From: Escherichia phage vB_EcoM_I14.1
DNA: 64,000 nt
Direction: 5' to 3' (one strand)
Sequence record: PP892526.1
The notes beneath the pieces were generated by a model. The model searched no databases and was not told where the DNA came from. It saw only the letters and a program-made list of their open reading frames with translations. The stretch's first letter is position 1; each line of letters opens with the position of its first letter. Shown in pieces: positions 9,285 to 11,840 of this stretch. The position numbers and the translations under genes were made by a program.

Positions 9285-10700
9285 ATGAGCGAATTATTTA
9301 AACATGCGCACCTTCATGCAGGTCGAACTGAAAATGGTGCTGTAAACCATACTTCATCAATGTCTGCTCTGGTAGACTTCTACAAAGCCGCTGGCTCAAG
9401 CCGTAGCAATGTAGAAATCTTACCAGACCTGTTCTACAAAGCTTTGCGTGAGGATGTTGATGTTGCAGTTCGTATTTTACTGCATATGCGAGATGTACGA
9501 GAAGGTATGGGTGAGCGTAAAGCTTTCCGAACTGTTTTACTTCAAGCGATTGAAGATAAAGTTTTAGAACCTACACAGGTTCTTCGCATTATGGATAAGA
9601 TTGCAGAACTTGGTCGTTTTGATGACTTCAAAATCTTCGTAGGTACTCGTTTTGAGACAGATGCCTTCAAACATTTAGAAGCAGCATTACTAGACCCTGC
9701 AACGGCAGGTTTAGCGGCTAAGTGGTTACCACGAGTAAAACCACGCCACAAACAGTTTGTAAAACGTTTCTGTAAGTTTGCAAACTTAAGTGAGAAGGAG
9801 TATCGCACACTGTTATCTGCACTGTCTGATACGGTTGAGCAAAAAATCTCCGCTAATGAGTTTGGTAAGATTGACTACAGCAAGATTCCTTCACTCGCTG
9901 CTGCACGTTACCAAAAGCTCTTTAACCGTAAAGATGGGGAACGTTACAAAGCTTACATCGAGCCCCTCTCAAAAGGTGAGGCTAAGATTAACGCTGGTGC
10001 TGTTTACCCATACGATGTGATTAAATCTATCAAGTATGGTAATGCAGATGTTGCTAATGAGCAGTGGAAAGCACTACCAAACTGGATGGCAGAAGGTGAG
10101 AACATCTTGTGTATGACTGATGTTTCAAGCTCAATGTCTTGGGTGAATCTTGGTTCAATCACTGCCCTTGATATTGGTGTATCACTTGCTTTGTATGTAG
10201 CAGAGCGCAACACTGGTTGCTTTAAGAATGAGTTAATGGTTTACTCAACAAACCCTCACTTCATCGAACTGAGTGGTGATTTACGAAACCGTCATCGTCA
10301 GGTAATGCGTCATGTTGAATATGGTTCAACTAACTTACAAGCAGCTTTTGACCGTATTCTTGAGGTAGGTAAGCGAAACAACTTGACTCAGAAAGATATG
10401 CCAAGTAAGCTTATTATCTTCTCTGATATGGAGTTCAATCAGGTTGATGGAGCTAACGGTCGTACAAACTTTGAAGCAATTCAGAGTAAGTACAAAAAAG
10501 CTGGATACGAAATGCCACAACTAGTATTTTGGTACTTAGCAAACCGTAATGGTACTTGCGAAGTATCTGTTAAGGATAATGGTGTAGCGATGGTATCAGG
10601 GTTCTCTCCAGCCACTTTAAAAGCTCTGCTTGGTGGTGAGAAGTTTGACCCAATCAGCGTAATGCTCAAAGCAGTAATGATTGACCGTTACATCTGGTAA
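9285..10700 (+). CDS. Ro60-like protein (TROVE-like N-terminus plus vWA domain with MIDAS motif)
   Basis: MIDAS-like DVSSSM; C-terminal KLIIFSDMEFNQ and GF-x4-L resemble the Ro60 vWA region; N-terminal ENGAV..LVDFYKAAGSS resembles the TROVE start; alignment from memory. Confidence 0.55.
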   Translation: MSELFKHAHLHAGRTENGAVNHTSSMSALVDFYKAAGSSRSNVEILPDLFYKALREDVDVAVRILLHMRDVREGMGERKAFRTVLLQAIEDKVLEPTQVLRIMDKIAELGRFDDFKIFVGTRFETDAFKHLEAALLDPATAGLAAKWLPRVKPRHKQFVKRFCKFANLSEKEYRTLLSALSDTVEQKISANEFGKIDYSKIPSLAAARYQKLFNRKDGERYKAYIEPLSKGEAKINAGAVYPYDVIKSIKYGNADVANEQWKALPNWMAEGENILCMTDVSSSMSWVNLGSITALDIGVSLALYVAERNTGCFKNELMVYSTNPHFIELSGDLRNRHRQVMRHVEYGSTNLQAAFDRILEVGKRNNLTQKDMPSKLIIFSDMEFNQVDGANGRTNFEAIQSKYKKAGYEMPQLVFWYLANRNGTCEVSVKDNGVAMVSGFSPATLKALLGGEKFDPISVMLKAVMIDRYIW

Positions 10701-10718
10701 AAAGTTTTAAAAAGGGTA

Positions 10719-10747
10719 TTGACAATATGTTTGATACCCTTTAATAT
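10719..10747 (+). promoter_or_regulatory. sigma70-like promoter TTGACA-N17-TAATAT overlapping hairpin AAGGGTAT..ATACCCTT
   Basis: Direct reading. Confidence 0.5.
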
Positions 10748-10808
10748 GTTCTACATAGAAACGAAATGAGAGCTTTTCTAAGATACTGAAAAATATTTTA
10801 AAAAAGTT

Positions 10809-10838
10809 CTTGACAACCACTAAAAAATAATGTTAAAG
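10809..10838 (+). promoter_or_regulatory. promoter upstream of tRNA cluster (TTGACA-N18-TAAAGT, TG-extended)
   Basis: Direct reading; 28 nt upstream of first tRNA. Confidence 0.5.
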
Positions 10839-10865
10839 TGGTTACATAGAGTTTGAAAAGTTTAT

Positions 10866-10942
10866 CTCTGTTTAGCTCAGCTTGGTAGAGCGTTCCGTTT
10901 GGGGCGGTAAGGCCGGAGGTTCAAGTCCTCCAACAGAGACCA
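10866..10942 (+). tRNA. tRNA-Pro(TGG)
   Basis: Hand-folded cloverleaf, T-arm GGAGGttcaagtCCTCC, encoded CCA; one anticodon-stem mismatch. Confidence 0.65.
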
Positions 10943-10949
10943 AATTAAT

Positions 10950-11027
10950 GTTCCAGTAGACAAAATGGTAAAGTCACCACTCTTTCAAAGTGGATATTTG
11001 AGGGTTCAAATCCCTTCTGGAACGCCA
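10950..11027 (+). tRNA. tRNA-Glu(TTC)
   Basis: Acceptor GTTCCAG/CTGGAAC, anticodon stem CCACT/AGTGG, loop CTTTCAA, CCA. Confidence 0.7.
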
Positions 11028-11034
11028 GTTTTGA

Positions 11035-11107
11035 CAGAAGACCAATTGCAGCAAACTTAATCTTATTCATCTGACACGAAATCGGACAAAGAAGAGATTT
11101 GGTCTGG
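11035..11107 (+). ncRNA. stem-closed structured element E1 (candidate Y-RNA-like RNA)
   Basis: 5' CAGAAGACCAA..TTGGTCTGG 3' closing stem; one of four related copies. Confidence 0.45.
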
Positions 11108-11207
11108 TCATTAAGAATTGCGGGTATAGAGAAAGGGCGTCTCACATGTCTCATTAGCATGGTATCGGCAGGTTTCCTGCACCCGCCTCCAAATTTACAG
11201 AAGACCG

Positions 11208-11261
11208 TTTACAGCAATATTTATTAAATTTTTAGCGGAAAAATTGAAAGATACGGTCTGG
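11208..11261 (+). ncRNA. stem-closed structured element E2 (candidate Y-RNA-like RNA)
   Basis: Closing stem AGACCGT/ACGGTCT (compensatory change versus E1/E3) plus inner hairpin AATTTTT-agcgg-AAAAATT. Confidence 0.45.
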
Positions 11262-11274
11262 TAATACTAAACAT

Positions 11275-11351
11275 GGTTAGGAAGCACATAAGGTATGTGC
11301 GGTCGCCTGTTAAGCGAATGGCACAGGGTTCGAATCCCTGACTAACCGCCA
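11275..11351 (+). tRNA. tRNA-Asn(GTT)
   Basis: T-arm CAGGGttcgaatCCCTG, anticodon loop CTGTTAA, CCA. Confidence 0.7.
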
Positions 11352-11360
11352 AATTTAAAT

Positions 11361-11448
11361 GTGTCGTTATCCCGTAGATGGTAGCGGTGGGGACTGTAAA
11401 TCCCTTGTCATTGAGACTCGGTAGGTTCGACTCCTACACGGCACACCA
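11361..11448 (+). tRNA. tRNA-Tyr(GTA), long variable arm
   Basis: Anticodon loop CTGTAAA, T-arm GTAGGttcgactCCTAC, 88 nt, CCA. Confidence 0.7.
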
Positions 11449-11454
11449 AATAAA

Positions 11455-11532
11455 GGTTATGTAGTTTAATCTGGTTAAAATACTCCCCTGTCACGGGAGA
11501 TGATGAGGGTTCAAATCCCTTCGTAACCGCCA
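11455..11532 (+). tRNA. tRNA-Asp(GTC)
   Basis: Anticodon stem CTCCC/GGGAG, loop CTGTCAC, CCA. Confidence 0.75.
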
Positions 11533-11618
11533 AATTATAATAAGTATTTCAAAATGATGTTTGAGAGGGCTATTTAGCCCCTCCCTTAAAGCGTTCTTAC
11601 GAGTATTCTTTAAAGGAG

Positions 11619-11695
11619 CAGAAGACCAAATTCAGCAAGTACGTATGATATTTTCAAGCCAATTTAATTTTGAAAAAATTTAAAACTTGGTCTGG
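11619..11695 (+). ncRNA. stem-closed structured element E3 (candidate Y-RNA-like RNA)
   Basis: Closing stem AGACCAA/TTGGTCT, inner hairpin TTTTCAA..TTGAAAA. Confidence 0.45.
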
Positions 11696-11707
11696 CTCAA
11701 CAAATTT

Positions 11708-11840
11708 ACAGAAGACCGTTTACAGCAAAACTTAAACAATCTATTTCTCCGGTAAAGAAAAGGCGAAGGTTCGATTCCTTCACTCGGCAGATGTCGAGTT
11801 GGTGTAATGGTAGCACTTAAGATGATAAACAACGGTCTGG
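11708..11840 (+). ncRNA. structured element E4 with circularly permuted tRNA-like domain (candidate YrlA-like Y RNA)
   Basis: Closing stem AGACCGT/ACGGTCT; inside, in order: hairpin TTTCT-ccggtaa-AGAAA, T-arm GAAGGttcgattCCTTC, 3' acceptor ACTCGGC, loop, 5' acceptor GTCGAGT, D-arm GTGT-aatggta-GCAC. Confidence 0.5.

Follow-up and report, generated by a model that had tools for sequence, protein, structure and literature searches.

The Ro60/Y-RNA systems nearest to the locus considered here, which lies in Escherichia phage vB_EcoM_I14.1, are, among bacteria, Rsr with YrlA and YrlB (Salmonella, M. smegmatis), Yrn1/2 of D. radiodurans, and RYPER with PNPase (PMC4201824). YrlA is defined by a tRNA-like module consisting of T arm, acceptor stem, and D arm (T/AS/D) together with a 5' GNCGAAN0-1G motif (Chen et al. 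2014, PMC4201824), and was recorded close to TROVE proteins in 254 bacteria as well as in 22 phages, mycobacteriophage ET08 among them; in both groups Y RNAs lie a few kb from the Ro60 gene on the same strand (PMC4201824). As for other phages, Ro60 of Thermus phage phiLo binds two adjacent Yrl RNAs as well as host PNPase (PMC12135203; PDB 9l5y, 9kop). The window analysed in this work, i.e., a stretch of 64,000 nt from vB_EcoM_I14.1 (PP892526.1), belongs to a Felixounavirus, or Felix O1-like myovirus, and the region in question is 99.8% identical to Escherichia phage vB_EcoM_D4. It contains the gene of a 471-residue protein, which according to its predicted fold is a distant structural relative of Ro60, and 4 related RNA elements (E1–E4), which, judging by conservation and co-location, are probably its RNA partners. 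The list below gives their positions; R1 and R2 denote covariance models built from alignments of 14 YrlA-like elements from different lineages (A3) and of 35 short elements (A5), respectively, with E-values computed for the 64-kb window.

9285–10700, + strand: Ro60-like gene, an open reading frame (ORF) of 471 residues; Pfam DUF2828 and DUF7788; PHROG 850 "RNA-binding protein"; orthologue of Bas63 gp130
11035–11109, + strand: E1, CAGA-AGACCAA-UUG-CAGCAA ... UUGGUCU-G; R2 38.9 bits, E-value 8e-7; R1 26.5 bits
11198–11263, + strand: E2, AGACCGU-UUA-CAGCAA ... ACGGUCU-G; R2 40.3 bits, E-value 4e-7; R1 36.6 bits
11619–11697, + strand: E3, AGACCAA-AUU-CAGCAA ... UUGGUCU-G; R2 30.0 bits, E-value 1e-4
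11709–11842, + strand: E4, YrlA-like, AGACCGU-UUA-CAGCAA ... ACGGUCU-G; R1 97.9 bits, E-value 3e-16

The ORF and all sequence motifs quoted in the original prediction, which was made from the letters alone, are present in the protein: ENGAV (residues 16–20), LVDFYKAAGSS (29–39), and the MIDAS motif DVSSSM (279–284), as well as KLIIFSDMEFNQ (375–386) and SGFSPATL (438–445) in the C-terminal part. In an alignment of 80 homologues, which are 41–89% identical to the window protein, the MIDAS residues D279, S281, S283, T349, and D381 are invariant, i.e., the DxSxS...T...D pattern is intact. Profile matches above gathering threshold are obtained for DUF7788 and DUF2828 of Pfam (E-values 1.3e-43 and 7.7e-29, respectively) and for phrog_850 (4e-183). 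Ro60-specific families were represented by the Pfam hidden Markov models (HMMs) TROVE (PF05731) and vWA_Ro60 (PF25045). The latter does not match the window protein and gives weak matches for 17 of the 80 homologues (best E-value 1.7e-4), while VWA_2 is found in 51 of them. Searches of PDB chains with the protein and with the 80-member profile returned only noise (uridine kinase, S21), and a 10-bit match of the vWA motif to the phiLo TROVE protein was counted as noise too, so that a comparison of folds was needed. The AlphaFold2 model computed on the alignment has a predicted local distance difference test score of 89.3 and a predicted template modelling score of 0.89, and the best 13 matches reported by Foldseek against the PDB, each spanning the full length, are without exception Ro60 proteins. 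The model thus shows the Ro60 architecture, in which a ring of alpha-helical repeats is closed by a C-terminal vWA/MIDAS domain. Kinship with Ro60 and TROVE, as originally proposed, is therefore upheld by the modelled fold, but not by the TROVE profile, for which there is no match at E ≤ 1. On the strength of the model the protein is clearly a distant structural relative of Ro60 that belongs to a separate sequence family, rather than a recognisable TROVE member. In GenBank, 709 phage records contain relatives of this DUF2828 protein, which are also found in 2,840 protein clusters, and the relatives from mycobacteriophages are annotated as "Ro-like RNA binding protein".

The protein has a close orthologue with known genetics. 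Gp130 (bas63_0130) of Bas63 (Escherichia phage JohannRWettstein, Felixounavirus) shares 461 of 471 residues (98%) with it, and Bas63 has the same synteny 5' of the tRNA-Pro/Glu/Met/Asn/Tyr/Asp genes and the same four E elements. According to the PhageMaP preprint (PMC11482910), gp130 is structurally homologous to Ro60 and acts against the Ppl defence (ATPase and PHP). Its deletion results in minute plaques on the Ppl strain, complementation restores their size, and gp130 alone, either plasmid-borne or inserted in T7, rescues T7 on Ppl (PMC11482910). The counter-defence role suggested for the window protein in advance agrees with these results; no paper on the Ppl mechanism was found in the literature searched. 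The Bas63 authors also guess that some of the annotated tRNA genes are possibly Y RNAs (PMC11482910), whereas the E elements lie in the gaps between annotated tRNAs and not among them; the motif, structure, and distribution of these elements are not described in the preprint. In Listeria phage CKA15 three extremely abundant unannotated transcripts are reported <2 kb 5' of the homologue CKA15_055, which the authors suggest are perhaps Y RNAs, and CKA15_055 itself is found in purified virions (20 peptides, 57% coverage) (PMC12282133). The Ro-like protein may thus be packaged and delivered with the DNA. LMSP-25, a relative of CKA15, has three R2/R1 matches ≤350 nt 5' of its gene.

E1–E4, read from the stretch 10680–12700, have a common design, consisting of a 7-bp closing helix, 3 nt, and CAGCAA, with a G after the 3' strand. 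All of them are sited in gaps between tRNA genes, 335–1140 nt 3' of the Ro60-like gene and on its strand. The tRNA cluster had been placed ~300 nt downstream of the gene; it actually begins after 166 nt (tRNA-Pro at 10866), and the first E element follows at 335 nt. The claim of four related stem-closed elements is confirmed. Their closing helix covaries between copies and between phages. Its sixth pair is A-U in E1 and E3 and G-C in E2 and E4, a compensatory change between copies (in E1 positions 11039–11045 pair with 11099–11105, and in E2 11202–11208 with 11253–11259). The minimum free energy (MFE) fold of E2 has a z-score of −2.1. None of the four elements is called as tRNA by ARAGORN, and Rfam over 10600–13400, at gathering thresholds and at E ≤ 10, reports only tRNAs and noise; E4 gives a partial 22-bit match to the Rfam tRNA model RF00005 at 11732–11782, which is under the gathering score of 29. 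The alternative partition, in which the units are the intervals between elements (GGUCUGG...AGAAGACC closing a tRNA), was rejected because E3 and E4 are adjacent (~11 nt apart) and because isolated elements exist in other phages. The sole other R2 match in the window at E < 0.01, and the sole one outside the tRNA region, is located at 43049–43108 on the minus strand (26 bits, E-value ~0.001, UAGGUUCAGCAA); since it falls inside a coding ORF of 119 residues (42911–43270, minus strand), it is probably due to chance and was set aside.

E4 carries the closing helix and UUACAGCAA common to E1–E3, and in addition a complete tRNA-like core. The parts of this core are, in sequence, a hairpin that resembles an anticodon arm (UUUCU-CCGGUAA-AGAAA), the tetranucleotide AGGC, the T arm (GAAGG-UUCGAUU-CCUUC), an acceptor-like stem of 7 bp capped by a tetraloop (ACUCGGC-AGAU-GUCGAGU), the dinucleotide U-G, and the D arm (GUGU-AAUGGUA-GCAC). 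As predicted from the sequence, one element thus has the permuted YrlA topology, with T arm, acceptor-like stem, and D arm in this order. E4 possesses the equivalents of U8, A14, G18G19, and T-loop UUCGA. Across the alignment of YrlA-like elements those of U8, G18G19, and the T loop are invariant, and that of A14 is nearly so.

The same unit recurs in other phages. In a geometry scan of 90 loci (10 from GenBank and 80 from IMG/VR) the spacing is constant, comprising 7 bp, 3 nt (mostly UUA or UUU), and CAGCA(A), the latter being an invariant block located 10 nt from the first base pair; a G always follows the 3' strand, and the second helix pair is nearly always G-C. Flanks read in Sf14 (Shigella), FBKp34 (Klebsiella), and Krypton555 (Mycobacterium) have the same design with other helix sequences, and Krypton555 has three elements directly 3' of its DUF2828 gene without adjoining tRNAs. 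The elements are kept in all Felixounavirus and Mooglevirus loci examined (15 IMG/VR and 4 GenBank records). To obtain A3 and A5, every sequence was re-cut 4 nt outside the first base pair; a first MAFFT alignment (A2), in which the closing helix was off by one column in half of the rows and RNAalifold recovered only T and D arms, was discarded. The four-helix structure of A3 is 93.1% paired, versus 62% for shuffled sequences and ≤46% with the partners slid, and double-sided changes are seen in 21 of 23 pairs. The acceptor-like helix of A3 is 91% paired with all 7 pairs covarying, and the D helix is 84% paired. In A5 all 7 pairs of the closing helix covary and its pairing reaches 100%, partly by construction as explained below.

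Searches with R1 and R2 cover both strands of 78 phage loci centred on DUF2828 genes (685 kb in total). As both models are partly seeded with the window's own elements, it is the recurrence in other phages that provides independent support. R1 has 49 matches at E ≤ 0.01 and R2 has 87 at E ≤ 0.1, and all 136 are on the strand of the gene. At least one match is present in 54 of the 78 loci, and in 50 a match lies ≤600 nt from the gene. R1/R2 matches also stand beside the DUF2828 genes of four Gram-positive phages from which no sequence entered the models, namely Listeria LMSP-25, Staphylococcus S-CoN_Ph11, Enterococcus VRE9_2, and Bacillus Chewbecca. The negative control, 36 kb of tRNA clusters of the T5-like and T4-like kind without a DUF2828 gene, yielded no R2 match at E ≤ 1. 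R1 matches extending over two neighbouring tRNAs (13621–13736 in the window and 14300–14415 in locus L094) were rejected as dimeric-tRNA false positives, a kind of artefact in covariance searches against which Chen et al. warn (PMC4201824).

In comparison with bacterial Rsr systems, the locus has in common the Ro60 fold, several adjacent noncoding RNAs on the same strand, and a helix formed by the 5' and 3' ends of the RNA, one RNA being permuted tRNA-like (V/T/AS/D order) and the others shorter hairpins. E1–E4, like the elements of 54 of 78 related loci, also lie within ~4 kb of the Ro60 orthologue and on its strand, as is the rule for YrlA. It differs in the families recognised by HMMs (DUF2828/DUF7788 versus TROVE/vWA_Ro60), in the proposed recognition motif (UUACAGCAA after the helix versus GNCGAAN0-1G), and in the placement of RNAs inside a phage tRNA operon versus the rtcBA operon; besides, the Rfam YrlA model (RF02553) misses E4. 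Mycobacteriophage ET08 (cluster C), with gp220 and YrlA, likewise combines a phage Ro-like protein with an adjacent YrlA-type RNA having the T/AS/D core; R1 scores the tRNA-like core of its upstream RNA at 39 bits with the CAGCAA positions deleted. Gp220, however, is a canonical TROVE (5e-49) and vWA_Ro60 (2e-54) protein, and the ET08 RNAs have GCCGA(A/G)G-type motifs and no CAGCAA. Krypton555, unlike ET08, has a DUF2828-type protein and CAGCAA-type RNAs, so there are two protein families, each with its own RNA signature and with the tRNA-mimic idea common to both. PhiLo differs from the window in its TROVE-annotated protein and in its Yrl RNAs, which have a CGAA motif in an internal bulge, are without a tRNA-like module, and lie outside a tRNA operon. 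Finally, species I and II RNAs of T4 (rnaC and rnaD, at the end of the T4 tRNA cluster and annotated in RB27) are likewise small RNAs from a phage tRNA operon, stable, of unknown function, co-transcribed and processed; they have, however, no R2 match and no likeness to E elements, and no DUF2828 gene stands beside the cluster.

Two further arrangements were observed in the surveyed loci. The first is represented by over-long "tRNAs" of 113–121 nt with normal arm order in Klebsiella FBKp34 (L003 4503–4616) and Cronobacter S13 (L007 5896–6016 and 6026–6138), in which a hairpin followed by UUACAGCA or AUUCAGCA is inserted after the D arm; the one in FBKp34 has an intact tRNA-Asp anticodon arm 3' of the insert. 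Topologically, each is the circular permutation of a YrlA-like element, and the insert may be a tag that brings the putative protein-binding unit into a tRNA. The second comprises mini-elements of 35–55 nt, which in many other lineages end 2–10 nt 5' of the DUF2828 gene's Shine-Dalgarno sequence; the mini-element of KVP40-like Vibrio phages encloses the ribosome-binding site and the start codon. Such leader mini-elements suggest translational autoregulation of the DUF2828 gene. In the window no element is located 5' of the Ro60-like gene. Positions of the mini-elements are as follows.

L005 3964–4007: mini-element
L034 3946–3989: mini-element
L075 3899–3946: mini-element
L029 2328–2363: mini-element
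L008 3896–3930: mini-element
L028 3887–3943: mini-element
L006 3904–3961: mini-element

The setting of E1–E4 in the window is formed by a cluster of 24 tRNA genes 3' of the Ro60-like gene, starting with tRNA-Pro (ARAGORN, Rfam), and by candidate promoters, which together with the tRNA genes around E1 and E2 are listed below.

9216–9245, + strand: candidate sigma-70-like promoter 5' of the Ro60-like gene, TTGACA-18 nt-TAAAGT; consensus scan 10/12; pattern only, putative function
10719–10747 and 10810–10839, + strand: two strong candidate sigma-70-like promoters; consensus scan, 10/12 each; presumed to transcribe the tRNA/E-RNA cluster
10866–11027, + strand: tRNA-Pro and tRNA-Glu; ARAGORN and Rfam tRNA
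11120–11191, + strand: degenerate tRNA-Met(CAT)-like gene between E1 and E2; cloverleaf-like fold
11275–11532, + strand: tRNA-Asn, tRNA-Tyr, and tRNA-Asp; ARAGORN

The start of E1 lies 8 nt downstream of tRNA-Glu, and E2 ends 11 nt before tRNA-Asn. The tRNA-Met-like gene receives no call from ARAGORN or Rfam in the window, its T loop being shortened (GGCAGGUUUCCUGC versus GGUAGGUUCGACUCCUAC in Sf14), while Sf14 and Bas63 have an intact counterpart at the same place, annotated as tRNA-Met(CAT). The promoter at 10719–10747 (TTGACA-17 nt-TAATAT) sits within a 12-bp hairpin (10711–10742, AAAGGGUAU...AUACCCUUU) directly 3' of the stop codon of the Ro60-like gene; this hairpin-promoter is kept in Sf14, and the hairpin could have a second role as a terminator or processing site.

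The reading that we consider likely is that the locus encodes a Ro60/Y-RNA-type ribonucleoprotein (RNP) module of a divergent branch, with E1–E4 being cognate ligands released from the tRNA transcript. The interpretation given in the original prediction is thus supported. Several results, however, weigh against it. The window protein and all 80 homologues leave the Pfam TROVE HMM unmatched at E ≤ 1, the positive control, ET08 gp220, matching it at 5e-49. Rfam Y_RNA and YrlA models, with which the RNAs might have been recognised, match nowhere in the window, and RF02553 (gathering score 69 bits) has no match to the 171 nt around E4 even at E ≤ 10; the power of the latter test is low, since the published YrlA of ET08 scores just 37 bits and Krypton555 just 38 bits. 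The GNCGAAN0-1G motif is absent from the E RNAs, the 5' region of E4 being CAGAAGACCGUUUACAGCAA, and E1 and E3, when considered by themselves, have ordinary MFE z-scores (−0.4). No R1/R2 match is found in 24 of the 78 DUF2828 loci. The seed elements were chosen by their closing helix and in A3 also by the T arm, so the pairing of these helices (100% and 96%, respectively) is partly due to construction; the acceptor-like and D helices were not selection criteria, and their pairing provides independent support. The rescue of T7 on Ppl by gp130 alone means that this phenotype does not need the RNAs. Finally, the literature searched yielded neither transcript data for Felixounavirus nor protein–RNA binding data for any DUF2828 protein.

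Under the favoured Ro60/Y-RNA reading, the protein would recognise the base of the 7-bp helix (5'-W-G-R...Y-C-W-G-3') and the single-stranded UUACAGCAA that follows its 5' strand. The E RNAs would be made within the tRNA operon transcript from the two strong early-type promoters and excised by host tRNA-processing enzymes, with RNase P cutting where the next tRNA begins and with trimming 3' of the tRNA that precedes; E2, for instance, would receive its 3' end through RNase P cleavage in front of tRNA-Asn. E4, a YrlA-type tRNA mimic with circularly permuted order, would offer its open ends as the helix bound by the protein, and its elbow might tether the protein to tRNA-recognising enzymes or host exoribonucleases, by analogy with Rsr–YrlA–PNPase and phiLo Ro60–Yrl–PNPase. 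The shorter, YrlB-like E1–E3 may occupy or gate the protein or couple other partners. As gp130 by itself is enough to counter Ppl, a role of the RNAs in gating, targeting, or regulating the protein is more probable than one in that step. The likely outcome would be host RNA decay, repair, or surveillance remodelled in favour of the phage. Confidence in this downstream biochemistry is much lower than in the module itself.

A broader reading, which is tentative, treats DUF2828 proteins and helix-CAGCAA RNAs as a separate phage-wide Ro-like RNP system that extends over phages of Proteobacteria, Firmicutes, and Actinobacteria, in which the protein would read the RNA unit as a portable tag for protecting or handling phage tRNA-like RNAs. 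The tag would then occur in free hairpins, in permuted tRNA mimics, in the leader of the protein's own mRNA, and in tRNAs with an insert (hairpin and UUACAGCA between D arm and anticodon arm). Handling might mean protection, repair, or selective treatment during host RNA-targeting defence, and the system would combine autoregulation with the function of a general counter-defence hub, Ppl being one read-out.

It is unlikely, in our estimate, that the E elements act exclusively in cis, i.e., as operators or processing marks on tRNA-operon and mRNA transcripts that are bound by the protein, rather than as stable trans RNAs. The position of the last element 2–10 nt before the Shine-Dalgarno sequence in many lineages, and its enclosing of ribosome-binding site and AUG in KVP40-like phages, would fit translational autoregulation. 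In the window, however, all elements are 3' of the gene, behind promoters of their own and between tRNAs, with none 5', and the complete tRNA-like domain of E4 would be superfluous in an operator. Besides, cis and trans roles are compatible and do not exclude each other.

Rather improbable is also the independence of protein and RNAs, in which case the vWA/MIDAS face would counter defence by protein contact and the E RNAs would be accessories of the tRNA cluster, such as decoys or substrates for anticodon nucleases, RNase P, or the CCA-adding enzyme. It agrees with the sufficiency of gp130 against Ppl in T7, with the fact that MIDAS sites usually bind proteins, and with the 7-bp acceptor-like stem of E4, since a stem of this kind turns M. 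smegmatis YrlA into a substrate of RNase P. The elements, however, follow the DUF2828 gene and not tRNAs: they are present without an adjacent tRNA in Krypton555 and LAh_6, are missing from T4- and T5-type tRNA clusters, and keep the strand of the gene in every covariance-model match.

We give very little credence to the elements being structured spacers for the folding or processing of tRNA precursors, or decaying remnants of tRNAs or dimeric tRNAs. Their exact placement in tRNA gaps, the degenerate tRNA-Met between E1 and E2, and the weak false matches of covariance models on adjacent tRNA pairs are what one would expect of such spacers or remnants, but the invariant CAGCAA, the fixed 10-nt spacing, the kept 3' G, and helices that covary across phyla are not expected for remnants, and the elements are present in all Felixounavirus and Mooglevirus loci examined. 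That the four copies, with similar inverted termini within 800 bp, are a mobile or repeat element resembling a miniature inverted-repeat transposable element, spread in the tRNA region with inverted-repeat ends AGACCN...NGGTCT, is hardly credible, as they differ by compensatory changes (A-U in E1/E3, G-C in E2/E4), the motif is specific to one strand, the structure persists in other phages whose helix sequences are unrelated, and no target-site duplications are seen.

Other features of the locus include one more conserved structured RNA in the gap between E4 and tRNA-Lys.

11843–11980, + strand: extra conserved structured RNA; MFE −40.4 kcal/mol, z-score −3.8

Its long closing helix (~19–22 bp) shows compensatory changes across 5 Ounavirinae loci, and Rfam gives no match to it. 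It contains a hairpin at 11942–11960 (AGAC-CUUAAGCAA-GUCU-GG; in Sf14, AAACC-CUUUAGCAA-GGUUU-G), which looks like an E element in minimal, degenerate form; the structured RNA may belong to the Ro60-like system. Short ORFs at 11680–11832 (minus strand), 11561–11683 (+ strand), and L094 12749–12901 overlap E3, E4, and this structured RNA, and are labelled "hypothetical protein" in GenBank (vB_EcoM_D4 CDS0023 and CDS0024; bas63_0137 and bas63_0138). In Bas63 E3 and E4 underlie the antisense ORF bas63_0137, whose counterpart in the window is ORF 11680–11832; the ORFs over E3 and E4 are probably spurious calls on noncoding RNA.

Directly 5' of the Ro60-like gene lies an ORF of 123 residues (8832–9203, + strand; PHROG 4114, function unknown) with a basic, glycine-rich N-terminus, and the pair is kept in Sf14 and Bas63. 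Further along the cluster, 12588–12666 gives a weak tRNA-like match (Rfam tRNA, 31.7 bits) with no ARAGORN call; an HNH endonuclease ORF (12640–13032) begins within its 3' part, and the match may represent a tRNA gene disrupted or invaded by a homing endonuclease. As for RNA-repair genes, elsewhere an RtcB-type "tRNA-splicing ligase" (LMSP-25, L095 6808–8019) and an RNA ligase 2 (Aeromonas LAh_6, L006 9070–9353) are found near Ro-like genes, as is a Band-7-like protein in Krypton555 (L004 1–404); the polynucleotide kinase of ET08 (L101 48563–49084) is ~18 kb from a canonical TROVE-type Ro gene, not a DUF2828 one. In the window none of these genes adjoins the Ro60-like gene.

The Ro60 likeness and the counter-defence role of the protein are already published for the orthologue, whereas the RNA family with the CAGCAA signature, three topologies, and wide distribution appears to be new in the literature searched. 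Ro60 and Y RNAs form a long-studied, functionally elusive system of RNA surveillance, with a human lupus autoantigen at one end of its range and bacterial Rsr at the other. The elements described here would supply the missing RNA half for a large phage branch of it that had gone unrecognised, with helix plus CAGCAA as a simple testable unit. Annotation is affected as well, since many phage records lay "hypothetical protein" ORFs or odd over-long tRNAs over such RNAs. The system is tractable, as the orthologue in coliphage Bas63 has a clean anti-Ppl phenotype, and whether Y-like RNAs gate a Ro-type protein, target it, or are dispensable for it during infection is a question now open to test. 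The three topologies, i.e., free hairpin, permuted tRNA mimic, and tag-inserted tRNA, provide a series for the evolution of tRNA-mimicking Y RNAs.

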